From the IMG/VR virus record IMGVR_UViG_3300033146_001635, positions 1-64,000 of that record: a DNA stretch of 64,000 nt; one strand, given 5' to 3'. The position numbers were made by a program, and so were the translations under genes. Shown here piece by piece: positions 7,171-62,199 of the stretch. The notes under the pieces are model-generated. The model had not been told where the DNA came from and made no database searches. It saw nothing but the letters and a program-made list of their open reading frames with translations. The stretch is from a virus. Every line of letters starts with the position of its first letter. The first letter of the stretch is position 1.

Positions 7171-7181
7171 AAATATAAGGG

Positions 7182-10100: not shown

Positions 10101-10238
10101 AAAAATAATTATTTAAAACAAGAATTAAACACAGAATTTACAATGATTAAAGAAAATCCAGATATGGAACCTGAAACAATTAAATTGCTTAGATCTAATT
10201 TAAGAGTTTTGGGTATTGATTTTGATGGAGAATTATAA
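7182..10238 (+). CDS. rpoB: Phage multisubunit RNA polymerase, beta-like subunit (1018 aa)
   Basis: GPGG, ICPVDTPDRENCG, PFLEHDD..R..M...QMRQA, GYNNEDGIVIS, GDKLANRHGNKGV, LNPMGVLSRMNLGQ, GGQRCGEME. Confidence 0.95.
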   Translation: MKMYQNNPDLKLPEINIFNLRKLDDLKLMDTIEEILKVPIKYGFKLEEFSKSDIRYTGHNLVNTIKENINVKLSKNNNIVDLSMQIPKLVDNQWFVINGRRKIPRFQLYDIPLLTLYFKNEIRFHSNVGRIGIYWTDNKKKAPSFVSIASLSKKIPLSIVLYAFYGIEKVEELFLKDVDEDELNKIPNDKKSILQLLQLDLIDAYSEVTQEMYIEAIGDYFSRKNPKEKGEDYIFTLENILDIDVIAKKFIPHDNILDCLCDILINEIQLDDTDYLNKRLRCYEYAIIQYFMENIYKLCLTCRNSNKPKYNINKTKILASCNVSEIIQYDFCINPVEQLTKLTQCTLSGPGGFKKESIPIKLRDLNQSMIGKICPVDTPDRENCGVVQNVTPVVKFDNNFKFLEDNTKVIPSLAVSMVPFLEHDDTTRLQMAASQMRQAILLDNFQVPLVCSGVEKQFTEFTSFIEYAKDDGEVIYKDTKKLIIGYKNGEIKIIDIGIKKILSDNMSHMTTVLNIGDKFNKGDIIASSSFCNDGLIKIGRNFKVAFMSYYGYNNEDGIVISDKLVKDNSLTSVHYLDLSFNISPNKVLERLIDSEVYTPLFPVGTRLKKGDVYARLKDMYLFGSIKDQVYDIFKDSQEKITPKDILITDIKIYANEWHTELKEYDAWIKYNIQKQIDYGNKIINIIKDNSDEATAKKLITEHRLDELMYPKQYKRKDEKLKGVHIEMTAVYERPIQVGDKLANRHGNKGVITSIMSHETMPQLPNGEHVEICLNPMGVLSRMNLGQLFEFHLSEALMKFKNILKQMLKDNCKQDDIKKLIMSFIKMTDKTDTQWISHSFKEYLPEIIDEKFIDDLYLIQPQFNSISKDDMDKIMDFVECEYEIELYDPVSKEKIESKIAVGYMYLMKLIHIAENKLAYRSISTLSRKTMQPTAGKKLNGGQRCGEMESGCAVSNDMPINQTEFYTIKSDCIDAKNNYLKQELNTEFTMIKENPDMEPETIKLLRSNLRVLGIDFDGEL

Positions 10239-12662: not shown

Positions 12663-12842
12663 ATGTCGATTCCCACAATAACAATAAAACAAATAAGGGA
12701 TAATGATTTAAATAGTTGGGCTGTATTAGTTAATAATATTATATGTTTTGGTGGTTTATCGAAATCATCTATACCTTATTATAAAAAACTGGCTTTACAA
12801 ACCTATAACAAAAGGAAACAAAAACAATGTCAGGTACTATAA
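12663..12842 (+). CDS. Small hypothetical protein (59 aa; not in the ORF track)
   Basis: gaggt RBS, then MSIPTITIKQIRDNDLNSWAVLVNN...QCQVL*. Confidence 0.55.
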   Translation: MSIPTITIKQIRDNDLNSWAVLVNNIICFGGLSKSSIPYYKKLALQTYNKRKQKQCQVL

Positions 12843-13123
12843 TGTATGACAAAATACTTGAACACGTTATTAAATTACATCGAAAAAAAATAGATAAATA
12901 TATGTTAAAAATCATAAAATCAAATGTAGCATCTAAATGCCCCAAAAAATTAAAAGAAGTTGAAACATATGAAGGTGGATTTTTGGAAGATGAAGATCAA
13001 AAACGATTATTATTCTGGACGAATCCTGAAATTCAAAATAAAGATGATAAAATAGTTGCAACATTTAAAATAAACAATAAAGAAGAAAAATTAATAATTG
13101 AGGAAACAGTGCAATGGAAATAA
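12827..13123 (+). CDS. Hypothetical protein
   Basis: 98-aa ORF in a tightly packed operon. Confidence 0.55.
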   Translation: MSGTIMYDKILEHVIKLHRKKIDKYMLKIIKSNVASKCPKKLKEVETYEGGFLEDEDQKRLLFWTNPEIQNKDDKIVATFKINNKEEKLIIEETVQWK

Positions 13124-14046
13124 CACCATTGTTAGAATACCCAATAGGTTCTTTTTTATATGGTACAAATACTGAAAATTCTGACAAAGATTATGCAGGT
13201 GTTTTTGTTGCTGAAATAGATTATTATTTTGGTTTAAAAAATATAAAAGAAGCTGATATGTCAATTAAATCCAAAGATGCCTATAATAAAAATACTTCCG
13301 AGGCTATAGATAAAAAATTTTATGAATTAAAAAGATTTATAAATTTAGCCAAAGATAATAATCCAACTATAATTGAGCAGTTGTTTATACCTCGTGATAA
13401 ATTGATATATCATAATACAAATGGTCTTAAATTACTTGAACATAAAAAAGATTTTTTACATAAAGGATTGTATTATAGATTTTTAGGTTATGCATATTCT
13501 CAAAAGAAAAAAATGATAATCAAATTAGATAATTATAAAGATTATGAATATGTTAGAGATGTAATACAAAATGCAGATCCAAGAGATACACTTTTTCATA
13601 TTAGGGATAAAATAAAAAAATTTATTTTTAAAGATGAACATATAAAAGTTGGTGATATAAAAATTCCAATGGGAATTTTAAATAAAAAAGCTTTAGATAT
13701 TTTAAATAAAAGATTTAAAAATTTAAGTAATAGAACAATTTTAATCAAAAAATACGGGTATGATACTAAATTTGCATCACATTTAATTCGATTGGTTTTA
13801 GAAGGAATTGAATTACTCAAAACAAAAAATCTTATATTTCCATTACAACAAGCTAATTATATTAAGGATATTAAAAAAGGAAAATATGGATTAGATGATG
13901 TATTAAATGATTTTGATAAATTAGAGAAACAAATAAAAAATGTATGTGAAAATTCTGATTTACCTAAATACCCTGATTTTAATAAATTAAATAAACTTTC
14001 TATTGATTTGATTTATCATCAATTAAAAATAAATCAAGTTATATAA
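13114..14046 (+). CDS. Pol-beta superfamily nucleotidyltransferase (RlaP / Nuc-transf-like)
   Basis: GSFLYGTNTENSDKDYAGVF, NPTIIEQLF, FLGYAYSQ, YDTKFASHLIRL, IKKGKY. Confidence 0.85.
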   Translation: MEITPLLEYPIGSFLYGTNTENSDKDYAGVFVAEIDYYFGLKNIKEADMSIKSKDAYNKNTSEAIDKKFYELKRFINLAKDNNPTIIEQLFIPRDKLIYHNTNGLKLLEHKKDFLHKGLYYRFLGYAYSQKKKMIIKLDNYKDYEYVRDVIQNADPRDTLFHIRDKIKKFIFKDEHIKVGDIKIPMGILNKKALDILNKRFKNLSNRTILIKKYGYDTKFASHLIRLVLEGIELLKTKNLIFPLQQANYIKDIKKGKYGLDDVLNDFDKLEKQIKNVCENSDLPKYPDFNKLNKLSIDLIYHQLKINQVI

Positions 14047-14062
14047 ATAAGGAGTAAATAAA

Positions 14063-14341
14063 ATGCCTTATTTTAAATTACCAGTTACATGGGAATCTTA
14101 TGGAGCCCTTGATATAGAAGCTAATAATGAAGAAGAGTTTTGGGAATTAGTTAAAAAATATAGAAACGACAATGATGATTTACCGTTACCAGATGCTGAA
14201 TATGTAGATGGGAGTTTTACAATTGCAGATGATGAAACTATTAAGTTATTAAACGAGTCATTACAAAAGAAAGAAGAAACTAGTGAAGATATAATAAATG
14301 TAATAAAATTTTATAATAAAAAATTTAAAAACAAAGAATAA
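14063..14341 (+). CDS. Hypothetical phage protein
   Basis: FKLPVTWESYG..IEAN...LPLPD.EYVDGSF; RBS aggag. Confidence 0.7.
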   Translation: MPYFKLPVTWESYGALDIEANNEEEFWELVKKYRNDNDDLPLPDAEYVDGSFTIADDETIKLLNESLQKKEETSEDIINVIKFYNKKFKNKE

Positions 14342-14344
14342 GGA

Positions 14345-15265
14345 GTGGTTATGTTTATAGACGAAGCGTTGGATATGGGGTTAACTCAAATAGATAATGG
14401 GTTATACGAGTATAAAGATAGATATTCATCAATATGGTATGAAATATTAAGAGGGGTTTCAAGAGAAACGCCATTACCATCTCTTGGTATTTTTACAGCT
14501 CCATCTGATGCCGATATTGAAAATTCAAACTATGTTGGTGCGGTATCAACTGAATACAAATTTATTGGTAATGCAGATGTTCTTGATACTATGATGGAAT
14601 CAATTAATAATATTAGTTCAGAAATAAATTTAAGAGAAAAATTTATATTTAATCATAAATTTACTCATATTGTAAGTGAACTTATGATAATTAATAATAA
14701 TAATACCAGAATTGATATTGGTACTGTCATACCTATTATTACAGTTGAAAATTCATATGATGGGTCGAAAGCTGAAACTTATTCTTTTGGAATTGGGATT
14801 GTTGATAATAATTATGATTTAATCGGTAGTTTTACTTTTAAAAAGAAAATTCTTGGTATGCGACAAATTCATTTAATCAATGCTCGCTCAACAATTGAAT
14901 CCAATGTTGGGTCATATGTTGAAATTTTCAATACTAATATATCTGATATTATTAGTGAAAATTTCAATAAAGTTATTCCACCTGAAGATGCAATGAAAGC
15001 ATTGGGAATGGTAGAAAAATTGGGTAAAAAAAGATATGCTACAGTTGTTAGTAATTTAGCTCAATTAACACAATCCAGTATAGAAGAAAATGAAGATGGG
15101 GATTTGGATTTACCTCCTATTAATGCATGGAATATGTTTCTTGCTATTGCAACTTATTCTGCAAAGGAGGAAAATTTAAATGCTAAAAAAATGTTAGAAA
15201 ATATTGCTGAAAGAACTTTAGCTATTCCAACAAGAATGATTGAGGCATTAAATCGTAGAAGGTAA
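14345..15265 (+). CDS. DUF932/DUF945-like protein
   Basis: VGAVSTEYKFIGNAD and VENSYDGS motifs; NAWNMF near the C-terminus. Confidence 0.55.
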   Translation: MVMFIDEALDMGLTQIDNGLYEYKDRYSSIWYEILRGVSRETPLPSLGIFTAPSDADIENSNYVGAVSTEYKFIGNADVLDTMMESINNISSEINLREKFIFNHKFTHIVSELMIINNNNTRIDIGTVIPIITVENSYDGSKAETYSFGIGIVDNNYDLIGSFTFKKKILGMRQIHLINARSTIESNVGSYVEIFNTNISDIISENFNKVIPPEDAMKALGMVEKLGKKRYATVVSNLAQLTQSSIEENEDGDLDLPPINAWNMFLAIATYSAKEENLNAKKMLENIAERTLAIPTRMIEALNRRR

Positions 15266-19703: not shown

Positions 19704-19720
19704 TTTATAGTTTGAGATTG

Positions 19721-19734
19721 AGAACATAATAATG
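19721..19734 (+). promoter_or_regulatory. Late-type promoter AGAACA-TAATAA-TG
   Basis: Recurrent motif upstream of the HEXXH/tape-measure operon. Confidence 0.65.
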
Positions 19735-19735
19735 A

Positions 19736-20689
19736 ATGATTTCTATTTTTTTAAAAGTGAGATATAAAATGGAAAAAAATAACTTAAATGAAATGTTTGC
19801 TGTACCATTTAATTCTAAATTGGTAGCAATATTTGATAATAAAATTAAATTATATACATCACCATTTTTAATTAAGCAATATAAAAAAGCTTTAGCTTCT
19901 ACTAAATACACAGCACCATCGTTTCCTTTATTAAATGATTTGATTGACAAACAAACAGTAATTCCAGTTTATATGTCACAAAATATTTTATCATATTCTT
20001 TTCATAAAATATTTGGTCACAACAATGCATTATCTGGTGCTTTGGCATTTTATGATCCTTCATCAAATAAAATATTTGTTTTAATTGACATGAATACCAC
20101 TCTAGGATTTGTATCAGATAAATGGATTTCTAAATTAACTGTACATGAAATGATGCATATGGCTTGTGCGCATGGAAAAGATAATTTTAAAAAATTATTT
20201 ATAAACGAATATAAAGCTTTTTATAATCATTTTTTTCATTTACTAGCTGAAGAACATATTACAACAAAAACTACAAAAGATATTGCACCTCTTGTAAATC
20301 AATATATTGATACTTTTCACAAAATAGAAGTACATAGTGCTGATTTGAAAGTCGCTATTACAAAAAAAGGTTTTAATATAATTTACAAAGTTTTAAAATA
20401 TTTCAATATTGATGAAAAAATAATTCAAAATGTTCAAGATGGATATAAATATATATTAATCATGTATATACAATATGGGGTAGCTGGTCTTATTAAAGCT
20501 ATGCAATACAAACAATGTAAATATATTTTGCAACAATTGAAACACACATACAAAAGTTTAACTAATATACAACCTGATACATTAGCAATTCAAGAATTAT
20601 TATTTCCATCTGAAATCATAGCTGTTTTATCTGAAACTGGTGTTATCACTAAGAAAACTCCAGCTGCTATTAAAATGATTAAAAAATAG
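19736..20689 (+). CDS. Zincin-like HEXXH metallopeptidase (likely start 19769)
   Basis: AFYDP..KIFV followed by VHEMMH; downstream QE..FPSE. Confidence 0.6.
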   Translation: MISIFLKVRYKMEKNNLNEMFAVPFNSKLVAIFDNKIKLYTSPFLIKQYKKALASTKYTAPSFPLLNDLIDKQTVIPVYMSQNILSYSFHKIFGHNNALSGALAFYDPSSNKIFVLIDMNTTLGFVSDKWISKLTVHEMMHMACAHGKDNFKKLFINEYKAFYNHFFHLLAEEHITTKTTKDIAPLVNQYIDTFHKIEVHSADLKVAITKKGFNIIYKVLKYFNIDEKIIQNVQDGYKYILIMYIQYGVAGLIKAMQYKQCKYILQQLKHTYKSLTNIQPDTLAIQELLFPSEIIAVLSETGVITKKTPAAIKMIKK

Positions 20690-38959: not shown

Positions 38960-40915
38960 TTATTTGATATAGAAATTCAATTCAATCTTTTCAGTTACCC
39001 GAGTCGGGGTTAATGTAACATTGACATGAAAAGTTTTTGTTTTCTTTTCATAATCACTTGCACCAACTTCAATTGAATAACTATATAATCCACGTCTAGA
39101 TGAAACATCTTCCAGAAAACTGGTAATATCATTACCAACACTATCCCAAGTTGTATTATCATTTAATTCAAAAATATAAAAACGACAATATCTTTCAAGA
39201 GCTTCCTTACAATATAATACAAGACGAACAATATTCAGATCTTGCATTGCACTTGGTTTAGCTTGGGTTGTTAGTTGCCCCCAAACAGCATAACCAATAT
39301 TAAATTTAACAATTGGATTTAACTGTCTAAGATACATTTGATCTCTTTGTTCAAGACGAGGATTAAATCTCAATTCTTGAATAGAATCAATAACACCTCT
39401 TTGGAATCCAGCAATAGCATACCAGACTTCTGATACATTATCATTTCTCGGAGCTAAATATGACATATGATACAGAGGGGATACCCAAATATCTGCGCCC
39501 GTAAATGCATCAAAAATCTTATTATATCCTTCATATAAAGCACATAAATAAGTATTGAAATTATGATCAGAATTTCTTTTGGCCATAGCTGTATTGAAAT
39601 CAGTATTATCACCATTGTCTAATAAGGCAACACAATCACGACGAGTATTAACTAATTGAGAAATGGATTGTTTTACTGATGTTGGATAACCAGCATCAAA
39701 AACAATAGTATAATACATTTTTTCTCTATCAAGTATTTCCTCATCTAAAATACCAGCATATCCTTGTGCTAATAAAGTTTCGCACATAGGCATATTAACA
39801 TTATGGTTTATATCATATATAGAACCATCTGAACCTTTTCTAAGAGCGATTTCACCACCGATAAAAGGTTCTGTTAAATCTGATAAATCTTTACGAATAT
39901 AATATTCAACACTATAATCAGTATCGTCAAAAATAGCTGTATCACCAATCCATTCTTGACTAGCGGTTGATAAATCTCTATCATTAAAAATATTTACAGT
40001 TTCATTGTCAACACCAGAAGAAGCACCTAACCACCCATATAATCTATTACCACGTTGGTCAATTGCAACAATAGCATATGTCGAAAGCCCAGTTTCAGCT
40101 TGATTAGCCCATTCACTAAAATCTTGTTTAAGATCTGTAATAGAAGCTAATCCTGGTGTTCTTTCTGTAGTGCTTGTACCAATTCTATTATCATAATTTT
40201 TAACGCATAACTGATACCCCGGTGAATATTCACCATTTGGAAGCATACATTCCGCTCTTAATAAACTTGAATATTTTTCAAGAATATCAGTAATAAAAAT
40301 AGAATCACCAGATGAATCTCTGGCTTCTGGGTTAAATGAAACAGAAAATGATTCAACAATTACTTCATCCCCATCAGCTTGTTTTTCATATATATCTATA
40401 ATATATACACCTTCAAACATTGGATTGGCATGTCTAGTTAATCGAACTGAAACTAGATTATAATAATCACCACGACCAATTGGGTGTAAAATACAAATTG
40501 GATATGTATCACCAACTTGTACTAAATTTGATTGAATTTCTGCTTGTGTTGAAATACCACTAATATAAGTAGTTAAAATATCAGCTGTAGAATCTGTACC
40601 ATTCCAAACAGCATCAATCCTTAAATTAGAGAATGTTGCATCATCTGGCATAACACGCATAAACCATAATGAACCAGATTCACCAAGATAGTTATAAGCA
40701 TTATATAAACCTTGCCCATAATGTTTCCCAAAAGTGGTTATATTAGGTTCACCCCATTCACTAATTAATTCATTTCGTGACCCAACAAAAATAGCCTCGT
40801 TATCACGACCTTTTTTTGTTAGAGCACACATAAAACCTGTTGTAGCAGGAACTGCTGAAACGTATGTAGAAAGATCAATTATCTTCGTATATACGCCCGG
40901 TGAAATATGAGCCAT
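38960..40915 (-). CDS. Contractile tail sheath protein
   Basis: ISPGVYTKIIDLS, WYAIAGFQRG, LNPIV, WGQLT, LNIVRL, FELND..TW, IELNF. Confidence 0.93.
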   Translation of the reverse strand: MAHISPGVYTKIIDLSTYVSAVPATTGFMCALTKKGRDNEAIFVGSRNELISEWGEPNITTFGKHYGQGLYNAYNYLGESGSLWFMRVMPDDATFSNLRIDAVWNGTDSTADILTTYISGISTQAEIQSNLVQVGDTYPICILHPIGRGDYYNLVSVRLTRHANPMFEGVYIIDIYEKQADGDEVIVESFSVSFNPEARDSSGDSIFITDILEKYSSLLRAECMLPNGEYSPGYQLCVKNYDNRIGTSTTERTPGLASITDLKQDFSEWANQAETGLSTYAIVAIDQRGNRLYGWLGASSGVDNETVNIFNDRDLSTASQEWIGDTAIFDDTDYSVEYYIRKDLSDLTEPFIGGEIALRKGSDGSIYDINHNVNMPMCETLLAQGYAGILDEEILDREKMYYTIVFDAGYPTSVKQSISQLVNTRRDCVALLDNGDNTDFNTAMAKRNSDHNFNTYLCALYEGYNKIFDAFTGADIWVSPLYHMSYLAPRNDNVSEVWYAIAGFQRGVIDSIQELRFNPRLEQRDQMYLRQLNPIVKFNIGYAVWGQLTTQAKPSAMQDLNIVRLVLYCKEALERYCRFYIFELNDNTTWDSVGNDITSFLEDVSSRRGLYSYSIEVGASDYEKKTKTFHVNVTLTPTRVTEKIELNFYIK

Positions 40916-41633: not shown

Positions 41634-41672
41634 ATATTTCCGATACCTTTAGTAAAAATACAAAATAATATT

Positions 41673-41686
41673 CATTTATATGTTCT
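41673..41686 (-). promoter_or_regulatory. Late-type promoter AGAACA-TATAAA-TG
   Basis: Upstream of the 41633-sheath-tube operon. Confidence 0.7.
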
Positions 41687-41722
41687 CATTTTTTTTAAAA
41701 ATTTGTAGTTTATATAATCAAT

Positions 41723-45555: not shown

Positions 45556-46251
45556 TTAAATTGCCAAAACTTTTGTAATTTCTTCTATAGATTTACAATA
45601 TGCTGCTATAAGAGCAGCTTCATTAATTGGATCTAAAAAATATTCCAGCTCATTTGAATTATCAATAAAAAACGGTTCTGCAATAACACAAGGAGCCTTT
45701 GTATATTTTAGTAAATATCCACCTCTATCTTCAACAGTCAACGGAACAATACCTCTATCCCTAGATTCAATTGAATCTGGTTTAATTGATAAAAGATTTT
45801 TTTGAAGTATTGTTGCCATTGTTAAACCCAACCACGATTTATAATAATATAAAACCTCGCACCCTTTAGCTTTGGTATTAAAAGCATTACAATGTAAACT
45901 AATAATAAAATCTGGATTCAATTCATTAATATCATTTGGCAATGATTTATATGTCCGACGATAAATTCTTTGAATTATAATATCACTATCATAAAATCTT
46001 TTTTCTATTCCCAAAGCAATTTTTTCATTAAATTCGAATTCATATATGTCATGATCTATATTATATGCACCGGGTGATGTTTTTTTATGACCAATTACCA
46101 AAGCGCAAGTTATCAATTCTTTATCTGTTTGATTTTTTGAATCGACCATTTTTTTCATTTCCTCTTGTATAGCAACTGTTTTTATTTTTTCTTGCCACCA
46201 CAATGATGTAAAATTATTAAAAAGTGTTTTAATAAAACTAAACATATTCAA
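45556..46251 (-). CDS. N-acetylmuramoyl-L-alanine amidase (Amidase_3) endolysin
   Basis: VIGH...GA...YEFEFN, FIISLHCNA...GCEVLY, CVIAEPFFIDN. Confidence 0.88.
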   Translation of the reverse strand: MNMFSFIKTLFNNFTSLWWQEKIKTVAIQEEMKKMVDSKNQTDKELITCALVIGHKKTSPGAYNIDHDIYEFEFNEKIALGIEKRFYDSDIIIQRIYRRTYKSLPNDINELNPDFIISLHCNAFNTKAKGCEVLYYYKSWLGLTMATILQKNLLSIKPDSIESRDRGIVPLTVEDRGGYLLKYTKAPCVIAEPFFIDNSNELEYFLDPINEAALIAAYCKSIEEITKVLAI

Positions 46252-48876: not shown

Positions 48877-49407
48877 TTATAGGTCATATTCATATTCGTT
48901 AATATATTTTTGAGTTATTAATTGATAAGTAACCAAAATGAAAAACCAAAAAAGAGGTATTAATAAAATACCTTTAATTGTAATAATTAATAATAATGTA
49001 CCCATAAAAGCTATAATAAAAAGAGCTATAACTGATAAAATTAATTTACCTTCACTAAAACGGTTTTTTATATCATATTGTGATAATTCTTTTTTAATAT
49101 CATTGCCAATTGATTTAATAAATTTTTTAGCATTATTCATATTAGCATCTGATAATTTTTCTATTTTTATTTTATTTTTATATTTGTTAACAATTTTATT
49201 AATTATTTTATCTATTGTTTGTTGATTAAATCCATTTCTTTTTAATTTATCAATAGCTTTATCTTTATTTGATAACAATTTATTTTTCATATCTACCATT
49301 GACATTGAAGCTAATTTATTTTGAAATGATGATATTAAATTTTCATGAAATAATATATTTACATCTTCTGATAAATAAATATATTCTTCAATTAAGTATA
49401 TATTCAT
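48877..49407 (-). CDS. Membrane protein with Glu-rich N-terminus
   Basis: YLSE/LFHE sites; two C-terminal TM helices. Confidence 0.6.
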   Translation of the reverse strand: MNIYLIEEYIYLSEDVNILFHENLISSFQNKLASMSMVDMKNKLLSNKDKAIDKLKRNGFNQQTIDKIINKIVNKYKNKIKIEKLSDANMNNAKKFIKSIGNDIKKELSQYDIKNRFSEGKLILSVIALFIIAFMGTLLLIITIKGILLIPLFWFFILVTYQLITQKYINEYEYDL

Positions 49408-53336: not shown

Positions 53337-53549
53337 TTATTTTTCAAAATAAGTAGAAGGTTTAGGGACTCTGTTTTTCAATTCTAAAATATCTTCTAAT
53401 GTAGGTTCGCCCTCTATATTCCAATCTTTAACTAATTGCATAGCCATTGGAATACCATGCCTCAGAATTAATTCTGAAATTGTTAATACCAAAGTTAATT
53501 CCATTTGTTGACCGTCCTTCTTAATTGGGGTTTCTGTATCATTACTCAT
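53337..53549 (-). CDS. Small hypothetical protein
   Basis: 70-aa ORF after the lipoprotein. Confidence 0.55.
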   Translation of the reverse strand: MSNDTETPIKKDGQQMELTLVLTISELILRHGIPMAMQLVKDWNIEGEPTLEDILELKNRVPKPSTYFEK

Positions 53550-53561
53550 CTTAACACCTAT

Positions 53562-53957
53562 TTACTTATTTAAATTTTCTTGACTAATTTCTAAAAATTC
53601 AACCAAAGCATTGTCCATACTTTTCACTATTGTATCTAATCTATCTTTATTAGCGGTTGTTTTTTGTCTCATATATATTTCATATGCTAAAACAGCAGAA
53701 TGATATGTTTTCCAATAAATATCAGCTTTTTGAATAATTTTTTCTTTTGTTTTTTCATCAATCAAACCTTTTTTATAAGCTTCACCAATTGTTTCCATTG
53801 TACTTTCATATGTTGTTGCAGCCATATTTAAACCTTTATAAACATTTTGTTCATAAGTCGCTGTATTGACTGCACAACTAATTAATAAACAAGAAGCAAT
53901 GGTTGTAATAACAAGATAAAAATAGATTGATGTAAAATATGATTTGATTTTATACAT
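53562..53957 (-). CDS. Lipoprotein (possible lysis accessory)
   Basis: Hydrophobic signal with lipobox LLISC; helical body. Confidence 0.6.
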   Translation of the reverse strand: MYKIKSYFTSIYFYLVITTIASCLLISCAVNTATYEQNVYKGLNMAATTYESTMETIGEAYKKGLIDEKTKEKIIQKADIYWKTYHSAVLAYEIYMRQKTTANKDRLDTIVKSMDNALVEFLEISQENLNK

Positions 53958-53999
53958 GACTTGAACCTCGACTAATCCTTATAAATTAAAAATTAACTT

Positions 54000-54013
54000 C
54001 ATTATTATGTTCT
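54000..54013 (-). promoter_or_regulatory. Late-type promoter AGAACA-TAATAA-TG
   Basis: Upstream of 53957. Confidence 0.7.
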
Positions 54014-54020
54014 TAAAATT

Positions 54021-54067
54021 AAAAAAAACCCCGACCATATACAATCTTAATAGTATATGGTCGGGGT
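54021..54067 (-). terminator. Rho-independent terminator ending the GAF operon
   Basis: accccgaccatatac/gtatatggtcggggt with A8 (U-tract on the minus strand). Confidence 0.8.
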
Positions 54068-54154
54068 ATAAGAAAATTAAAAATCAATCCCTTAATTTTT
54101 TTAGTTTCCACTCCCTGATTGAGTGCATGGTGTAATATTGGAATTGATTTTTAA

Positions 54155-54616
54155 TTAATCTTTAAAAAAAACAAACCAAGACATAATAGCTGTTACTATA
54201 GCTATTACAGCATTAACTGCTGAAATAGTTACAAAATATTTAAAAATTTTATCTTTAATAGCTAATAAATCTTTGCCTATCTCAGATAAAGAAGTCTTGG
54301 TCGAAGTATAATGGCGAGTATTTTCATCTCCCTTTATTTTTAATACTTCAATATTTGATTTTAAAAATTCTATTATTTTTTGATTATTTGAGGAAATATC
54401 TTTCTGAAGGTCTTCTATAATAGCTTCTAAATTTTCTTGTTTTTCCGAATTTAAAATGGCAACTTTACTCATCTCTTGTACTAGTTTTTCTGTTCTATTT
54501 AATCCATCTTTCATATGCTCGAATAAACTATTCAGAAGTCTTTCAGATAAAACGAGGGTTGTATCCTCATCCAAATCAACCCTCGAATATCGCTGAAAAT
54601 CTTTATTATCCGACAT
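54155..54616 (-). CDS. Coiled-coil protein with C-terminal TM helix (holin-like)
   Basis: Heptad-rich body followed by YFVTISAVNAVIAIVTAIMSWFVFF. Confidence 0.5.
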   Translation of the reverse strand: MSDNKDFQRYSRVDLDEDTTLVLSERLLNSLFEHMKDGLNRTEKLVQEMSKVAILNSEKQENLEAIIEDLQKDISSNNQKIIEFLKSNIEVLKIKGDENTRHYTSTKTSLSEIGKDLLAIKDKIFKYFVTISAVNAVIAIVTAIMSWFVFFKD

Positions 54617-55871
54617 TTTGTGGTTTCCTTTTCTGTAGATAAGATGATAAAATTGTATCCATCTTTCCTTTTAATCTGTTAAATATTTTATTATTTTCTT
54701 CATTTTCATGTTGCCATTCTAAAATCTTATCTAATATATATGCTTCCTTTTCTTTTGTGGCTTTGTATGGCTGATACCTTTTTATTGCCTCTGCTATATA
54801 GCATGACAACACTGTAAGTGTTTCAATTAAATCTTTTTTAAATGAGGAATATTCAAAAATTTGTGAAAATCCTAATACACCTATAGTAATATTATTATCT
54901 TTAAAATTATCAATAATAGGTATTAATAAAATAGATTTAATTTTTTTAACATTTTTTAAATAATCAATCTGTTGTTTTAATGTTAAATATAAATCACTAT
55001 CCTTTTCTATATTTACTTTGTCTGCTAATATTTCTAATTCCTCCCCCACATTTTCTATATGAATAGGCACAACTTCATCATTGAATTTATAAATAATATG
55101 GTTCCACGGAAATAAATTTATATCAGCTTCTTTATCTTGTAATAATAATGAATCAACTCCATCTGCACACCATTCGTTTGTTTTAATCATTTTTTGATTT
55201 TCATAATCAACAATGAATAAATAACCCCTATCAATTCCCCACAATTTACAAGTTATTTCCAAACATTTATCAATATATGAAAGCATTTCTGAATTTTTTG
55301 TTTTATATAGCAAAGATGATAAATCATTTAAATTTTTTCTAAAAATATGTATTTTTTTTAATTTTTGTTTCATACGTTTAGATTTTTCTTGTGAGGCGAT
55401 AATATTAGCAGCTAATTCATAATAATGAATATCTACCTCACTAAATAATTTATATCCTAACGAATTATATAAATACAAACCAACTAAACAACCTATGAAT
55501 TTATCTTTTAATTTTACACGAACTATAATTACAAATGACCCATCCTCACATTGAAAAATTTGATTTAATTCTTTATCCCTATATATAATTTCACTTTTAG
55601 TTAATTTATCAGCATATTTAATTAATTTTTCATATGTTCCATTTGTAGATAATACATCTCTTGTTTTTTCTAAAGGAGCAATAACATTGGATTCAGTGTT
55701 TAATTTCTTTTCTTTTTGAACATAAACAACTGCATCACATTTACAAATTTTATGTATTTGTTTTAATAATTTCTCAACATTAGGTAATTCATCTTCCCCA
55801 AATTCAGCATAAATCTCTGTTATTTTTAGAGCTTTATCTAAATTAATACAAACAGGCCTTTCTTCTAACAT
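54606..55871 (-). CDS. Tandem GAF-domain protein, no output domain
   Basis: IDKCLE...IDRGYLF...TNEWCADGV...FPW...IKSILLIPI...GVLGF; short coiled-coil tail. Confidence 0.8.
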   Translation of the reverse strand: MLEERPVCINLDKALKITEIYAEFGEDELPNVEKLLKQIHKICKCDAVVYVQKEKKLNTESNVIAPLEKTRDVLSTNGTYEKLIKYADKLTKSEIIYRDKELNQIFQCEDGSFVIIVRVKLKDKFIGCLVGLYLYNSLGYKLFSEVDIHYYELAANIIASQEKSKRMKQKLKKIHIFRKNLNDLSSLLYKTKNSEMLSYIDKCLEITCKLWGIDRGYLFIVDYENQKMIKTNEWCADGVDSLLLQDKEADINLFPWNHIIYKFNDEVVPIHIENVGEELEILADKVNIEKDSDLYLTLKQQIDYLKNVKKIKSILLIPIIDNFKDNNITIGVLGFSQIFEYSSFKKDLIETLTVLSCYIAEAIKRYQPYKATKEKEAYILDKILEWQHENEENNKIFNRLKGKMDTILSSYLQKRKPQNVG

Positions 55872-55885
55872 GATAAATTCCTTTA

Positions 55886-56971
55886 TTATTTTGTCATGCT
55901 CTGTAAATTCTTAATCAAGTTAAAACTATCAGATGCAACTTGCTTCGACTCTTGTTCCCATTTTCGCAATTTACCTTTTAACAATCTTTCGATAGCCTTA
56001 TTTTTTTTATACATCGCTTTTTGACAAATAATTTCATAAAGAATATGAAAAATTATTTCTATTCTAACTAATGCTATATCATCTAAATCTATATTTTCAT
56101 GATTATTTGACATTGTAAATAATATATTTATATCTCTATATTCCAACGGTAATGCATAAACAGTTTTGGGCATATTATCATTTATAAAATATTTAGAAAA
56201 TTTTTCTGGTACGTCATATAAATAAACATAATTAGTATGTGATTGATTTAATATAGTGTGTATGGTAGGCCACGGTCCATATGGATCCGAAATTTCAAAA
56301 TCATATAAACCATATAAACATTGTGCATTTTCAGTAGCATATGAAACAAATGGATAATATCGATTATTTCTATTTTCACTAATATGAGCACAAGTCATAT
56401 TAAAATAAGTACACATTATTCCTAATACTTTTTGTAAAAAATCATCTGTATCATCATCTGATTTATAAAAATCGTTATTAAAAACGTCATTAATAGTTTT
56501 ATTAAAACTTTCAATAATATGTACTTTTTTTCTATATAAAAAATAATTTATTTTTAATTCAAATAATTTTGTAAAATCATCAATATTTTTAATATTTTTT
56601 TGTGGTTCTTTTTCAAAAACAAAAATTAGATAATTACAATATTTATGTTTTAATTCAATATTTACCTTTTTATATATAGTAAAATATTTATGCCCCAATG
56701 ACATAAAAAAATTATCATCTGTATACAGATGATTTAAAATAATATTTTTAATATCTAATTCACCAATTTTTTCAATCCATTTTTTCGGAATGTTTTTGGT
56801 GTGATATATTTCAGAAAAATTATCCATAATATAAATACAATCTATATTATGAAGTAATTCAAAATTATCGATTAATGCTTTAGGAAGGGATGAATTATCA
56901 GTGATATTTAAGATTTCATTAACACTAATCATGGCAATATCAATAATACGAAGATAAAGATTGTTTTTCAA
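55886..56971 (-). CDS. Divergent GAF-domain protein, no output domain
   Basis: LQKVLGIMCTYF..TCAHI...GPW...LYDVP...TVYALPL; similar C-terminal W-containing helix. Confidence 0.55.
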   Translation of the reverse strand: MKNNLYLRIIDIAMISVNEILNITDNSSLPKALIDNFELLHNIDCIYIMDNFSEIYHTKNIPKKWIEKIGELDIKNIILNHLYTDDNFFMSLGHKYFTIYKKVNIELKHKYCNYLIFVFEKEPQKNIKNIDDFTKLFELKINYFLYRKKVHIIESFNKTINDVFNNDFYKSDDDTDDFLQKVLGIMCTYFNMTCAHISENRNNRYYPFVSYATENAQCLYGLYDFEISDPYGPWPTIHTILNQSHTNYVYLYDVPEKFSKYFINDNMPKTVYALPLEYRDINILFTMSNNHENIDLDDIALVRIEIIFHILYEIICQKAMYKKNKAIERLLKGKLRKWEQESKQVASDSFNLIKNLQSMTK

Positions 56972-57230
56972 ATAGTTCTGACAGTTTAGATCCGTTTGTT
57001 ACTATTGATTCACCTTGATTATATTTTTCTAAATTCGTTTTTAATATATTTAAACTTTCTTGAACTTTATATATATTTTCTAAAATATATAATTCATTTT
57101 GAGAAGGATCTATTTTATTTTCCAACATTTCAGATAAATTTTTTAATCGATCCATGAAATCGTGGCCATTTTGTCCACTCATTTCTAATAATGTTGCACG
57201 AATACGATTTTTTATTTTTTCTTCACTCAT
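56940..57230 (-). CDS. Hypothetical helical protein
   Basis: 96 aa, overlaps the GAF gene. Confidence 0.55.
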   Translation of the reverse strand: MSEEKIKNRIRATLLEMSGQNGHDFMDRLKNLSEMLENKIDPSQNELYILENIYKVQESLNILKTNLEKYNQGESIVTNGSKLSELFEKQSLSSYY

Positions 57231-57253
57231 AATAAAATAGATCCTACCAAAAG

Positions 57254-57652
57254 TTATTTTACAGGTTTCTGGTTATCATCTTGAAAGACAAATGCTTTCT
57301 TAGATGGTTCAAACTTATATCCATCTGGAATATTATATGTTTCTACGATTCTTTGAATAAGAGCATTAACTTCATTAATTTCTTGTTGATACTGTTTAAT
57401 AAATTCTTTGTATTGAATTTCTAATTGTTGTTTTTTTAATTGTTGTACTTCTAATTTGAGTAAATGATTTTCTAAATTTAAACTAGCAACATCATCAATT
57501 TTATATTCATCTTTTTTAACTTGATCAGTTTTTATTTCTTCTTTTTCAATCGTTCCAAAATCTTGTACAGGCGCAATACTTTCTTTTTGTTCTTGCCCGT
57601 TTAAGGTTTCCATAGTAGTTAAATCTTGCATGGTAGTTAAAACTTCTTCCAT
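57254..57652 (-). CDS. Coiled-coil hypothetical protein
   Basis: 132 aa; RBS aaggag. Confidence 0.65.
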   Translation of the reverse strand: MEEVLTTMQDLTTMETLNGQEQKESIAPVQDFGTIEKEEIKTDQVKKDEYKIDDVASLNLENHLLKLEVQQLKKQQLEIQYKEFIKQYQQEINEVNALIQRIVETYNIPDGYKFEPSKKAFVFQDDNQKPVK

Positions 57653-57694
57653 TTCAGCTCTCCTTAATTTGGTTTTTTAAAAGTAAAAATTGTT

Positions 57695-57708
57695 CATTTT
57701 TATGTTCT
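57695..57708 (-). promoter_or_regulatory. Late-type promoter AGAACA-TAAAAA-TG
   Basis: Heads the GAF/holin-like operon. Confidence 0.7.
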
Positions 57709-58284: not shown

Positions 58285-59352
58285 TTAGATTGTTTCTATT
58301 AAAATATTGGATTGTCTCCATATTGTAGAAACTTTTTTTGTATATCCAAATTTTGAAGAATTATAAGCAATTTTAGTGTGTAGTCTAATTTCATCACCAT
58401 CTGTTACATTCAATAAAATACCGGGGCATGTTACTGCACCATTTTGTCCATATTTATAACTTCTGGTATATGCAAATGAAATACTATCAGTTACTTCATT
58501 CCAATTTTTACTTAACAATGCTTGCATTTGAATTCGATTATATTCAGAATTTATAAAATTAACTTTATATGATATTTTAATCATACCAGAATAATTATTA
58601 ATTAATATTACATCATACCCTATTTCATCTTTTATATCAGCTTTTTTCATAGAGAAAATATCATCTGATTTAATAAAATCATCCCATATAATAACTAATT
58701 CTTTTTGACGTTGATGGCTCTGCCATGTTTCATTAATAGCATATAAATATTTAATTTGAGTTGGTTTAATTGGAGCAGGAATTTCTGAAAAAACTTCCTG
58801 TAAAGAATGTGGTATCTCACCACAAGAATTATATTCATAATCATAATATTTTGCATCATTCATTGCCTGTACTTTATCAAAATATAAACTTCGTATACTA
58901 TTCAACCAATTTAAAATATCTATTGCTTTTTTATTATTTGCAGAAGATAAAGAATATAAAGCAGTAACATCAGATGGTGTTATTCCAAAATGCTGCTCAT
59001 AATCAACACGTTTTTCTAATAAATATTTTTCTTGATCTAAATTATTATAAGCATATAAAAAATCTCTATTTATATCAACTGGATATACATCACCACGATA
59101 ATAAATTATCATTGTTTCTTGAGATTTATATTTAATAAAAGTTTGAAAAATTTCAAGAATACATGGTTCACATTGCATTGACAAAATAAAAATTGGTGAA
59201 TTGCTTATTACAAACCCCAATAATTTATTAGTATCTTTATCTATAATTTTTAAATCAACATTATCTGTTATTTCTTTAATTTGATCTTGATGTAAAATAG
59301 CTTGATTATCAAGAGCTTCTTGTTTATTTGAATCTTGAAATAATATATTCAT
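58285..59352 (-). CDS. Fibre-associated protein with C-terminal C1q/TNF-like beta domain
   Basis: SFAYTRSYKYGQNG..TCP..LL.V.DGDEI resembles the C-terminal domain of the fibre (AYTRGYNYNKYGNCSCP..VEL..GDYI). Confidence 0.5.
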   Translation of the reverse strand: MNILFQDSNKQEALDNQAILHQDQIKEITDNVDLKIIDKDTNKLLGFVISNSPIFILSMQCEPCILEIFQTFIKYKSQETMIIYYRGDVYPVDINRDFLYAYNNLDQEKYLLEKRVDYEQHFGITPSDVTALYSLSSANNKKAIDILNWLNSIRSLYFDKVQAMNDAKYYDYEYNSCGEIPHSLQEVFSEIPAPIKPTQIKYLYAINETWQSHQRQKELVIIWDDFIKSDDIFSMKKADIKDEIGYDVILINNYSGMIKISYKVNFINSEYNRIQMQALLSKNWNEVTDSISFAYTRSYKYGQNGAVTCPGILLNVTDGDEIRLHTKIAYNSSKFGYTKKVSTIWRQSNILIETI

Positions 59353-60965
59353 GTTACTGTCCTAGGAACTTGTTGTATTAATATCCAAGTTTGTGAACTA
59401 CCAATAACAGGTGCTTGTATATCATCATCTCTTACATATGCAACTTCTATATAATCACCATTATCTAATTCAACATAAGTCAATGGGCATGAACAATTGC
59501 CATATTTATTATAATTATATCCTCTAGTATAGGCAGCGGTTTGAGAATAATCAATTTTTGTACCATTTACTTGAAGCCATGCTGTTATTGTGTTTCTAGC
59601 ATTATCACCCGAATCAAGTGTCATAAAAATATTATACGCAATTAATAATTTCAAATCATCATTAGCTGTTATTCTACCAGTTGATGTATTTAATGATAAT
59701 TTAGAATGTGATTTAATCACATCATCAAAAGGCACAACTCTAATAGTTGAATCAACTACTTGTGTACCAGTCATACCATATGAAACAGTAAATGGAGGTT
59801 TTGGAACTCTGATTCTAGCAACACCACCACCTCTATCATCTGCAACTATATCACCAGTAAAATTCAATGTACTATGTGGGGTATTTGATAAATTAACACC
59901 ATCTTCCTGAATTGTAATTGATGTGCCTGAACCATCCGCACCTTTTTGTGCAACTAAATCCCAATTAGATGAAGGTGGTTGGTCATTTAAAGTATTATTC
60001 GTTTTGCACACATAACAAGATCCATCTGATTCAACAGTATCATTTATATTGTAGGTAGTAGATGATGAATAAGCACCTTTCCAATCTAAATCACCAGATG
60101 GGCCAGTTGGTCCCGTTGCACCAGTATCACCTTTAGATGCCATTAAACTCCAATATGTTGAATTAGATGGATTTTGATTTGTTGTTGTATCTTGAATACA
60201 TACATAAGCAGACCCATTATATTCAACAGCTTGGTTTTCAGTATAATTTTGATTTTGCCACGCACCGTGCCATGTTATATCACCATCACTACCTTTAGGA
60301 CCCTGACTTCCTTGTGTATTAAAAAGTGTTACTACACATTTATTAGCAATTGTTGTAAGAGTATTAGACCCATTATATCGAATAATTTGAACTCTTATTT
60401 TGTCACCAGTTTGAAATTTAATTGGATATATATGTGAACCAGATAATCTACCATTGTTTTCAGTTCTGTGGTACATACTAATTTCAAAATTATTTACATC
60501 AGCATAACCACTTCCACTATCAAGTTGTAAATATGCGGTGCTTCCACTTCTTGTAGTACCGGAATCAACATCTACATTTAAAGAAACACCTACCAATAAA
60601 GTTATATTTTTATTAATTGTAATTTCATTTGAACTTAAAGATGCAAATGTTGATGAAATATCAGTTGTATTTAACGCAATAGAAATTCTAGAATTGGTAA
60701 ATGTTTGTGCAGTTGATGCATAACATGAAAAAAGAACATCTTCTTTATTTTCAGTCCAATATGTTGTAGCTATATCAGGTGTTTTTGATAAATCACCTTC
60801 GGTACTTCCTGTTACAGCAGATATGCATCTATATGTTTTTGCTTTCCAAATAACAATATCACCAATTGCATAATTTGCAGTTTCATCATATAATCCCAAT
60901 GATGAAATAAAACTAGCTCCAGTTAAATTATGATCTGCTATTTGGTGTTTCTTTATTTGTGTCAT
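59349..60965 (-). CDS. Tail fibre/receptor-binding protein: CBM5/12-like repeats, short collagen Gly-X-Y stretches, two C1q-like domains
   Basis: WHGAW..QNY....VEYNGSAYVC and WKGAY....Y...DTVE.DGSCYVC; GDTGATGPTGPSG; likely start ATG 60965 with ggag RBS. Confidence 0.75.
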   Translation of the reverse strand: MTQIKKHQIADHNLTGASFISSLGLYDETANYAIGDIVIWKAKTYRCISAVTGSTEGDLSKTPDIATTYWTENKEDVLFSCYASTAQTFTNSRISIALNTTDISSTFASLSSNEITINKNITLLVGVSLNVDVDSGTTRSGSTAYLQLDSGSGYADVNNFEISMYHRTENNGRLSGSHIYPIKFQTGDKIRVQIIRYNGSNTLTTIANKCVVTLFNTQGSQGPKGSDGDITWHGAWQNQNYTENQAVEYNGSAYVCIQDTTTNQNPSNSTYWSLMASKGDTGATGPTGPSGDLDWKGAYSSSTTYNINDTVESDGSCYVCKTNNTLNDQPPSSNWDLVAQKGADGSGTSITIQEDGVNLSNTPHSTLNFTGDIVADDRGGGVARIRVPKPPFTVSYGMTGTQVVDSTIRVVPFDDVIKSHSKLSLNTSTGRITANDDLKLLIAYNIFMTLDSGDNARNTITAWLQVNGTKIDYSQTAAYTRGYNYNKYGNCSCPLTYVELDNGDYIEVAYVRDDDIQAPVIGSSQTWILIQQVPRTVT

Positions 60966-61012
60966 AAAAATAAACTCCGATGATACCAACACAATAATAG
61001 AATAGAATAATT

Positions 61013-61026
61013 CATTTATATGTTCT
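61013..61026 (-). promoter_or_regulatory. Late-type promoter AGAACA-TATAAA-TG
   Basis: Upstream of the fibre gene. Confidence 0.7.
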
Positions 61027-61056
61027 TATATTTTCATAGAAAATTACATTATTGAG

Positions 61057-61140: not shown

Positions 61141-61665
61141 ATGATAGAAGCAGCAGATTATATAACAATTACAGAATGTTCAAAATTATTTAATTTGAAT
61201 CCATCTACTGTTAAAACATATATAGGTGGACCTGATTATCCAGGTTTTAGATGGAGTAAAAAAAGAGTATATAAAGTCTTAAAAACATATCAACGAAATT
61301 GTGCTAAATGTGGAAAACCATTTATTCTACATAAAAATAATACTAAACATTCAACACTTTGTGCAGAATGTAGAATAATAAAAAAAGTAAAAGTATACAA
61401 ACGAATATGTCCCAAATGCAAACAACCATTCACAACAAAAATAAAAGAAAATAAAATCTGTTTCCAATGTTTGTCTAATCCTTCTATTAACAAAAAAAAT
61501 GATCCATTTGGTGTAATGAGAAAACCAACTTATCGTGGGAGAACATGCCCTTGTGGAAGTGGTATTCCATTACCAACTGGTATATATAGATGCAATGAAT
61601 GTAATGACAAATTTCAATATGAAAGAAATGAGTATGTAGATGATTTTGTTTATTATTTTAACTAA
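61141..61665 (+). CDS. HTH plus multi-Zn-finger protein
   Basis: ITITECSKLFNLNPSTVKTY; CxxC pairs CAKC/CAEC/CPKC/CFQC/CPCG/CNEC. Confidence 0.65.
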   Translation: MIEAADYITITECSKLFNLNPSTVKTYIGGPDYPGFRWSKKRVYKVLKTYQRNCAKCGKPFILHKNNTKHSTLCAECRIIKKVKVYKRICPKCKQPFTTKIKENKICFQCLSNPSINKKNDPFGVMRKPTYRGRTCPCGSGIPLPTGIYRCNECNDKFQYERNEYVDDFVYYFN

Positions 61666-61674
61666 GAGGAAATA

Positions 61675-62199
61675 ATGTTAAATTTAGCTATTGAATACGC
61701 AACTGAAAAACACAAAAATCAAAAAAGAAAATATATTAATTTACCATATATTATACATCCATTAACTGTTATGGAAATTATCCGAGGTACAGTTGAGAAT
61801 CACACAGAAGAAATGCTATGTGCAGCTGTATTACATGATGTAGTTGAAGATACAGATACCACAATTATAGATATTAAAAATAATTTTGGTGAAGATGTTG
61901 CGGAATATGTATATTATTTAACAGATATTTCCAAACCATCTGATGGTAATAGAAAAATTAGAAAAGAATTAGATAGACAGCATATAGCAAAAGCGGGATA
62001 TGAAGCACAAACAATTAAATTAGCTGATTTAATTGACAATTCTGCTTCTATTCTTTTATATGATAAAAATTTCTCTGTAGTATATATTAAAGAAAAAATG
62101 AAACTTTTAGAAGTTTTAACAAAAGGTGACAAAAGACTTTTAGAAGTTGCTAATCAAATTGTAATGGATTATTATTTACAAAAAAATATAATTACATAA
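61675..62199 (+). CDS. Small alarmone hydrolase (RelA/SpoT HD, Mesh1-like)
   Basis: A.EKH.NQKRK...PYIIHP..V, AAVLHDVVEDT, FG..VA..V..LTD, IKLAD.IDN. Confidence 0.88.
   Translation: MLNLAIEYATEKHKNQKRKYINLPYIIHPLTVMEIIRGTVENHTEEMLCAAVLHDVVEDTDTTIIDIKNNFGEDVAEYVYYLTDISKPSDGNRKIRKELDRQHIAKAGYEAQTIKLADLIDNSASILLYDKNFSVVYIKEKMKLLEVLTKGDKRLLEVANQIVMDYYLQKNIIT

Follow-up and report, generated by a model that had tools for sequence, protein, structure and literature searches.

Organization of the locus

We analysed a stretch of viral DNA of 64,000 nucleotides (nt), positions 1 to 64,000 of the IMG/VR record IMGVR_UViG_3300033146_001635, which is referred to below as the window. We focus on a unit of five genes on its minus strand. 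They code for two proteins with a predicted tandem GAF fold (pB and pA), a small membrane protein (TM153), a coiled-coil protein (cc132) and a small helical protein (small96). The window has a G+C content of 26% and is part of a virus record of 94,583 bp, for which CheckV gives a completeness of about 26%. It also carries split genes of the multisubunit RNA-polymerase beta type (4402-10238), together with genes for a tail sheath (38960-40915), the baseplate wedge, a terminase and tail fibres. The window is a fragment of an uncultivated, AT-rich giant bacteriophage, which is probably virulent. Tail-fibre genes are located upstream of the unit, and genes for the sheath, the baseplate and virion proteins are located downstream. 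The coordinates of all features are given in Table 1.

Table 1. Features of the unit and of the genes that follow it, in order of transcription (aa, amino acids; GAF, see text; TM, transmembrane; AF2, AlphaFold2).
Feature	Position	Strand	Remarks
Promoter-like motif TAAGAACATAAAAATGAA	57693..57710	(-)	48 nt before the ATG of cc132
cc132, 132-aa coiled-coil protein	57254..57652	(-)	Heptad-rich at residues 52-110; first open reading frame of the unit
small96, 96-aa helical protein	56940..57230	(-)	Six orthologues
pA, 348-aa output-less tandem GAF-like protein (predicted)	55886..56932	(-)	Diverged paralogue of pB, judged by profiles
pB, 421-aa output-less tandem GAF protein (predicted)	54606..55871	(-)	AF2 model, fold search and profile search
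TM153, 153-aa putatively tail-anchored membrane protein	54155..54616	(-)	One C-terminal TM helix, residues 123-152
Nested hairpin in the 3' untranslated region	54072..54152	(-)	Between the TM153 gene and the terminator
Intrinsic terminator	54020..54067	(-)	15-bp G+C-containing stem, 10-nt loop, U8
Second copy of the promoter-like motif	53998..54015	(-)	48 nt upstream of the lipoprotein gene
131-aa helical lipoprotein	53562..53957	(-)	Lipobox LISC, Cys28; separate transcription unit
70-aa conserved small protein	53337..53549	(-)	Directly after the lipoprotein gene; no family match

A first-pass annotation, made from the sequence alone, had listed a promoter, a coiled-coil open reading frame (ORF), a small ORF, two GAF genes, a TM gene, a terminator and a lipoprotein at this locus. 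All of these elements are present on the minus strand. The terminator closing the unit was also found, slightly beyond the annotated interval of 54155-57708. For comparison we used the metagenomic giant-phage contigs L001 (a 102-kb IMG/VR contig), L002, L003, L005 and L006. The gene order is kept in all of them, as the annotation had suggested checking, and hence the genes are not chance ORFs. The genes cc132, small96, pA and pB succeed each other with intergenic gaps of 23, 7 and 14 nt. The end of pB and the start of TM153 share ATGTCGGATAA, which is the 11-nt overlap that had been annotated, and the ribosome-binding site of TM153 (AAAGGAAA) sits inside pB. For pA the orthologue alignment favoured the ATG start (348 aa) over the TTG at 56971 given in the ORF list.

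The tandem GAF proteins pB and pA

Neither protein reaches the Pfam cut-off for GAF. The Pfam GAF score of pB is below the threshold (16.2 bits compared to a cut-off of 22.4; E 0.016, residues 203-363), pA matched none of the Pfam GAF families tested (PF01590, PF13185 and PF13492), and the remote family member P0038 matched GAF_2 at E 7e-5, which is still under the cut-off. Our assignment is therefore based on structure prediction with fold search and on profile search, not on Pfam. The GAF fold has a central antiparallel sheet, which is flanked by helices on one side.

The AF2 model of pB (mean predicted local distance difference test, pLDDT, 76.7) shows two alpha/beta domains, a linker helix and a C-terminal helix. 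We divided the protein accordingly into GAF-A (residues 1-144), the linker helix (145-190), GAF-B (193-345) and the C-terminal helix (346-414) with an invariant Trp386. Foldseek matched the model to GAF-A/B of PDE5A (3lfv; E 5.8e-10, template-modelling score about 0.5) and further to CyaB2 (1ykd), PDE2A (1mc0), PDE6 and phytochrome GAF-PHY. An exhaustive profile search with the pB family (alignment A1) returned 2640 proteins at E<=1e-3 and 205 at E<=1e-10. The long proteins among the top matches were PAS-GAF-GGDEF-HD-GYP and GAF-PAS-SpoIIE sensors, which were aligned via their Pfam GAF/GAF_2 regions with E-values down to 4.5e-26. A protein-atlas feature search with pB gave GAF clusters at 0.97. 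No match was obtained at E<=0.01 when the pB profile was compared to the PDB sequences. There are seven metagenomic orthologues of pB, with identities of 38-67%.

The AF2 model of pA is weaker than that of pB (pLDDT 61.7). Foldseek matched it to the tandem GAF of PDE6 (E 1e-6), and with VIA-align we obtained Z-scores of 11-13 over 270-298 residues to GAF-PHY and PDE6 GAF-A/B. No word-level homologue of pA was found. The hhalign comparison of the pA family (alignment A2) with the pB family gave a probability of 85% and an E-value of 6.4e-6 over the full length. Judged by their profiles the two proteins are distant paralogues, and by predicted structure both of them are output-less tandem GAF proteins. 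The annotation had described one GAF and one GAF-GAF protein. This holds for the tandem in pB, whereas pA is not a single-GAF protein and also comprises two domains. The Pfam scan agreed with the earlier statement that neither protein has a kinase, GGDEF or helix-turn-helix output. The similar L..W..E helix that had been noticed at the end of both proteins proved to be homologous, as KILEWQHEN of pB aligns with KLRKWEQES of pA, and the Trp of this C-terminal helix is invariant in A1, in A2 and in the remote members of the family. Neither pA nor pB has a TM helix; there is one weak hydrophobic stretch in the C-terminal helix of pA (Kyte-Doolittle 1.63), which is helical in the model.

The conservation of pB differs between its parts. 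The mean pairwise identity is 0.54 for the linker helix, 0.52 for GAF-B and only 0.42 for GAF-A. GAF-B carries most of the invariant polar and aromatic residues of the protein (D214, Y217, K230, W256, K312 and S336 are invariant or near-invariant), and in the C-terminal helix A362, R365 and W386 are invariant. Because GAF-B is, together with the linker helix, the best-conserved part and holds these residues, we consider it the putative ligand-binding domain. The cyclic-nucleotide-binding GAF subfamily of the PDE/CyaB type is characterized by the NKFDE motif (N-K/R-x(n)-F-x3-D-E). We found no conserved pattern of this kind in the alignments A1, A2 and A8. A KFNDE string in the pB of the window was dismissed as the orthologues do not share it. 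We also considered a site for a chromophore or haem linked through Cys/His (C235, H258 and H271 are invariant in A1), but discarded it since the remote members do not preserve these residues.

The membrane protein TM153

TM153 has an N-terminal hydrophilic part of about 120 aa, which contains a conserved head (DT.L.LS..L...KDGL.R..L, residues 18-45) and a coiled coil of variable length, and a single hydrophobic segment (Kyte-Doolittle 2.2). All full-length orthologues end 1-4 residues past this TM helix. As the Lys-rich flanks are on the N-terminal side, the protein is most simply explained as tail-anchored with its bulk in the cytoplasm. The orthologue in L001 (11222-11893) is 223 aa long and has a coiled-coil insertion of about 65 residues, which is internally repetitive (…IINEIQLNSDQH… / …ILNEIGGNSDEH…), and thus the length of the stalk appears to be free to vary. 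The genes for pB and the TM protein are tightly joined in all five relatives, either with an overlap or with a gap of 0-2 nt. Because this junction is found in every relative, it is plausible that pB and TM153 form a physical or functional pair. The atlas search suggested DUF7201 for TM153, but a direct family search did not confirm this lead.

The only lysin-like gene in the record encodes an Amidase_3 protein (45556-46251, minus strand) and is located about 8 kb from TM153. This N-acetylmuramoyl-L-alanine amidase (endolysin in PHROGs) sits among TM-bearing paralogues and a gene for a PrsW-type protease, and could serve either as the endolysin or as a virion-associated lysin. Near the amidase gene, positions 48877-49407 code for a 176-aa protein that has a double TM segment.

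Promoter-like motif, terminator and 3' hairpin

The 18-mer TAAGAACATAAWAATGAA occurs as an exact copy at both motif positions in Table 1. Near-copies with 1-2 mismatches are found before a tail-fibre gene (61011-61028, minus strand), beside the sheath region (41671-41688, minus strand) and before a block which includes a virion structural protein (19719-19736, plus strand). Overall we counted 7 matches compared to 2.35 expected. The recurrent 18-nt consensus is T[AG]AGAACATA[AT][AT]AATGAA, located about 38-48 nt upstream of structural or late-type genes. Its core GAACATAWWAATG is kept ahead of the orthologous first gene in L001, L002 and L003. In front of the lipoprotein gene we found the variants GGAACATAGTATTGA in L003 and GGAACATAATATTGA in L001, each immediately after a terminator hairpin of different sequence. 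We consider the motif a candidate late promoter, used by the RNA polymerase that the phage itself encodes, and refer to the unit as putatively late because the motif accompanies structural genes. A scan for sigma-70-type promoters gave fewer matches than shuffled sequences and is uninformative in this AT-rich phage DNA.

The terminator has a predicted folding energy of -27.2 kcal/mol (z -6.3), and none of 200 shuffled sequences folds as well. Hairpins tailed by a T-run, again of different sequence, are present at the equivalent site in L003 and L001. As both the promoter motif and the terminator recur in the relatives, the description of the locus as a bracketed unit was confirmed. A terminator-like site within the coding region of pA (56714-56733) has 3 G-C pairs and was treated as a chance occurrence.

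In the nested hairpin between TM153 and the terminator an outer stem encloses a small hairpin (-17 kcal/mol, z -3.4). The same architecture was observed at 5975-6066 in L003 (z -2.3) and at 11893-11992 in L001 (z -2.9). Between the window and L003 the sequence of the outer stem varies, whereas there is conservation of the loop segment CAATATTACACCATG..CTC...GAGTG. No Rfam family attained its gathering score for this hairpin. It may have a role in RNA stability or processing, or may represent a small RNA.

Distribution and evolution of the unit

The full gene set is present in the closer relatives L002, L003 and L006. In the more distant L001 and L005 pA is absent and the small helical gene is directly followed by pB. 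The conserved core of the unit thus consists of the coiled-coil protein, the small helical protein, pB and the TM protein. For the same pairs of genomes the identity is 35-39% for pA compared to 52-57% for pB, and on these comparisons pA appears as a lineage-specific, faster-evolving paralogue. Both observations speak against taking the heterodimer of the two GAF proteins, which had been proposed earlier, as the essential design.

Outside of these contigs we found four remote stand-alone members of the pB family (P0015, P0017, P0038 and P0112). They are 411-454 aa long with 18-22% identity to the pB of the window, and they keep IDR.YLF, the central Trp, K(S/T)ILLIPI, G(F)S and the exit-helix pattern A..KR...W. 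Neither a megablast search with the region nor tblastn searches with pB and the remote members P0015 and P0038 gave a match in 50,697 GenBank phage records. Scanning viral and genome contigs with A3, A8, P0017 and P0112 revealed no additional loci. One candidate locus (L011), which was found via the small96 profile, was rejected: it is unrelated DNA of higher G+C content in which the match is antisense to another ORF. The comparison of seven proteins with PHROGs, PADLOC and NCBIfam returned nothing meaningful, and weak family matches (tape measure, ZapB, PbeC, ATP synthase b) were dismissed as coiled-coil noise.

Other genes of the unit and its surroundings

The first gene of the unit, cc132, has orthologues at the same position in L001, L002, L003 and L005, and the protein ends in a conserved C-terminal motif (NIPDGYKF..F). 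It has no family match in Pfam, PHROGs, PADLOC or NCBIfam. The best-conserved small gene of the unit is small96. Its orthologues show 52-62% identity to the copy in the window and the alignment has 29 invariant columns. We found no relative of small96 in Pfam, PHROGs or PDB, and its profile returned only noise.

The genes for the lipoprotein and a protein of 62-74 aa also follow the unit as a separate unit in L001 and L003. The lipoprotein orthologues carry the lipoboxes LLASC (L003) and SLVSC (L001) and Cys28 is conserved; no family match was found in Pfam, PHROGs and NCBIfam. The orthologues of the 70-aa protein have 62 aa in L003 and 74 aa in L001. In L001 a gene for a 643-aa SNF2-type helicase-like protein (12719-14650) is inserted between the 74-aa gene and a 168-aa gene. 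The genes matching these two adjoin each other in the window and in L003.

On the upstream side a 355-aa protein (58285-59352, minus strand), which is encoded downstream of the tail-fibre gene (59349-60992, minus strand), shares the C-terminal segment AYTR.Y.Y...CP... with the fibre. At the equivalent position in L001 (7191-8276) we found an unrelated protein of 361 aa. This suggests an exchange of receptor-binding modules. About 4 kb from the unit there are two adjacent genes for 174-aa proteins (61141-61665 and 61675-62199, both on the plus strand). The second one matches HD_4, the HD domain of RelA/SpoT-type alarmone hydrolases, with an E-value of 1.2e-13. Going by this match, the phage may manipulate (p)ppGpp-type signals.

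Proposed function and alternative explanations

Cells use GAF domains very commonly to sense small molecules, and these domains almost always have a covalent enzyme or DNA-binding output. The tandem GAF module of the lineage described here stops with the signalling helix, and its gene is coupled to that of a tail-anchored protein. We tentatively propose that the unit encodes a late, membrane-tethered ligand-sensing complex and that this complex controls an event at the membrane, for which the timing of lysis is the foremost candidate. In such a complex pB would form dimers via its helices, like other tandem GAF modules, and GAF-B would bind a cytoplasmic small molecule. The C-terminal helix of pB, with its three invariant residues, would dock onto the head or the coiled coil of TM153, and this docking would take the place of the output domain to which ordinary GAF sensors are covalently linked. 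Binding of the ligand would then alter the oligomeric state or the activity of TM153 at the inner membrane late in infection. Most likely the complex would control when the cell is lysed, or some other event at the envelope late in infection. In phages that have pA, this protein may add a second input or a heteromeric variant.

Several observations are consistent with this proposal. They are the predicted tandem GAF folds without output, the apparent paralogy of pA and pB, the kinship of GAF-B to sensor GAF domains, the Trp helix shared with the remote members, the conserved junction of pB and the TM gene, the build of the TM protein (conserved head, coiled coil of variable length, C-terminal anchor without a tail) and the bracketed late-type unit. 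By analogy SpoIISA provides a precedent for a GAF-fold domain on a lysis-causing membrane moiety. The annotation had gone further and interpreted the locus as a ligand-sensing heterodimer that gates lysis through a holin-like protein, or as a nucleotide sponge. From this interpretation we keep the output-less GAF pair and the coupling of pB to the TM gene, while the heterodimer as the core, the holin and the sponge were not upheld.

A number of points weigh against a ligand-sensing complex that times lysis. We infer its ligand binding, its interactions and its phenotype from sequence. As the NKFDE motif is not conserved, the ligand need not be a cyclic nucleotide, and GAF folds can also act purely as protein-interaction modules. 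The location inside a block of virion genes fits a role in assembly equally well. Further points concern TM153 itself. A TM helix in a small late-type protein is a hallmark of holins, and TM153 shows it with a helix at residues 123-152 of 153 and a gene behind the late-type motif. However, neither TM153 nor any full-length orthologue has the charged C-terminal tail of holins, and no holin, spanin or other family was found for it in Pfam, PHROGs, NCBIfam and PADLOC. Its gene is not adjacent to the amidase gene, which is a weak argument in a record that is about 26% complete, and other genes for TM proteins are closer to the amidase than TM153. The true lysis cassette may be elsewhere in the genome, given the same incompleteness. 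With its single TM helix at the C-terminus, no charged tail, no holin family and a distance of 8 kb to the amidase, the description of TM153 as holin-like did not hold up, though it may have a membrane-perturbing function.

A more specific form of the proposal is a cytoplasmic, ligand-gated lysis checkpoint. Here the split sensor would read a host metabolite or second messenger late in infection and time the breach of the envelope via TM153, and the fast-evolving pA would widen the range of inputs. We regard this specific form as rather unlikely.

The most serious rival is a morphogenetic or virion module without a sensory role. The GAF folds would serve only as dimerising or protein-binding scaffolds and would help, together with the coiled-coil proteins, to assemble tail fibres, the baseplate or another late structure at the membrane, or the proteins would enter the particle as virion or ejection proteins. 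In favour of this, the unit lies within a structural block and has its promoter-like motif in common with a tail-fibre gene, three of the five products are coiled-coil proteins and a canonical ligand motif is missing. On the other hand no structural family of PHROGs matches any of the five proteins. The conservation is strongest in GAF-B and the linker helix, and GAF-B has invariant polar residues as in a working pocket. Its closest sequence relatives are bona fide sensor GAF domains. We therefore consider an assembly role doubtful, but it has to be taken seriously.

Compared to the sensing complex, an envelope or superinfection-exclusion system is improbable. In such a system TM153 and the GAF proteins would act with the lipoprotein and the 70-aa protein to modify the cell envelope, for instance to block a receptor or to exclude other phages. 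Lipoproteins encoded near tail-fibre genes are often receptor-blocking, as is the case for Llp of T5 and Cor of phi80. Here the pair of lipoprotein and small protein always follows the unit in the relatives and uses the same promoter-like motif. Yet the strong terminator and the separate copy of the motif split the two units, exclusion genes are usually expressed early, and no homology to known exclusion proteins was detected with Pfam, PHROGs, PADLOC and NCBIfam.

There is equally little probability that the GAF proteins are cytoplasmic regulators of late gene expression or host physiology, which would act on the multisubunit RNA polymerase of the phage, a host enzyme or another soluble partner, with the TM gene as a mere companion in the operon. 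Stand-alone GAF proteins can work through contacts with other proteins, the phage has genes for RNA polymerase subunits of its own, and the alarmone-hydrolase-type HD_4 gene is nearby (about 4 kb). The translational coupling to the TM gene is conserved in all relatives, though, and the proteins have no DNA-binding or partner-switch domain. Least probable of all, and disfavoured, is a sponge for host immune or second-messenger nucleotides that would act in anti-defence: some GAF families do bind cyclic nucleotides, two output-less paralogues could give a high binding capacity and pA evolves fast, as counter-defence genes often do, but the motif of the unit is that of structural genes whereas a sponge must act early, the coupling to a membrane anchor would be unexpected, the cyclic-nucleotide NKFDE motif is absent, and neither the defence and anti-defence libraries gave a match nor was a sponge family (Tad1, Tad2, Acb2) found in PHROGs or Pfam. 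The known sponges Tad1, Tad2 and Acb2 are small and have folds other than GAF. We thus found no positive evidence for the sponge that had been suggested earlier, and the structural-gene motif and the membrane coupling count against it.

If the proposed ligand-sensing complex exists, it would be an example of how sensor and output can be divided between separate proteins, and a virulent giant phage could use it to read the physiology of the host and time a late membrane event. The family is small and tractable, as soluble proteins of 348-421 aa make the discovery of a ligand feasible. In the searchable literature we found no description of tandem-GAF proteins from phages, and hence none of stand-alone ones coupled to a tail-anchored partner.

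Comparison with known systems

The structures most similar to the models of pB and pA are 3lfv, 1ykd, 1mc0, 6x88 and 9cxi. The tandem GAF modules of the phosphodiesterases PDE2/5/6 and of CyaB2, a cyanobacterial adenylyl cyclase, resemble the two phage proteins in that a long helix connects GAF-A to GAF-B and a C-terminal exit helix follows. The phage proteins differ from them as they have no catalytic domain, no conserved NKFDE motif and no detectable sequence similarity to PDB entries, and their presumed output is a separate, phage-encoded, tail-anchored membrane protein. The nearest sequence relatives of GAF-B by profile are the bacterial GAF sensors with PAS-GAF-GGDEF-HD-GYP or GAF-PAS-SpoIIE architecture. 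These sensors have 900-2000 aa and covalent enzymatic outputs, whereas the phage proteins stop after the signalling helix.

SpoIISA of B. subtilis has a cytoplasmic domain with a GAF fold, which forms a helix-bundle dimer, on a membrane moiety; its expression lyses the cells and a holin-like action has been proposed (PMC3057836). In SpoIISA one GAF-like domain is fused to three N-terminal TM helices and the protein is neutralised by a small antitoxin (SpoIISB). In the unit described here two GAF domains form a soluble protein of their own, and the single helix of the membrane partner is C-terminal. We use SpoIISA as an analogy and do not claim homology.

The spanins are a further point of comparison for the membrane protein and the lipoprotein. 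An i-spanin has an N-terminal TM helix and a periplasmic coiled coil, whereas TM153 shows the opposite topology with a C-terminal TM helix and no signal peptide. An o-spanin is a small outer-membrane lipoprotein whose gene overlaps or adjoins that of the i-spanin. A gene for a lipoprotein (lipobox LISC) does come after TM153, but it lies behind a terminator and its own promoter motif, and the predicted mature part of its product is helical with about 100 aa and not short and proline-rich.

VqmA of the vibriophage VP882 is a phage-encoded PAS-HTH receptor for a small molecule that decides when to kill the host. It is a transcription factor of a temperate phage, whereas the proteins described here have no DNA-binding domain and are encoded in a late-type unit of a giant phage that is probably virulent. 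The likeness is that in both cases a phage has a ligand-sensing domain of the PAS/GAF kind. In the lysis inhibition of T4 the triggering of the late single-TM holin T is delayed by the antiholins RI and RIII, and the t gene adjoins the tail-fibre genes. T is related to the proteins described here neither in sequence nor in fold, and it has an N-terminal TM helix, a large periplasmic domain and periplasmic sensing. The likeness is in the way the system works, since in T4 as in the proposed mechanism a late single-TM protein is held back by sensor or partner proteins.

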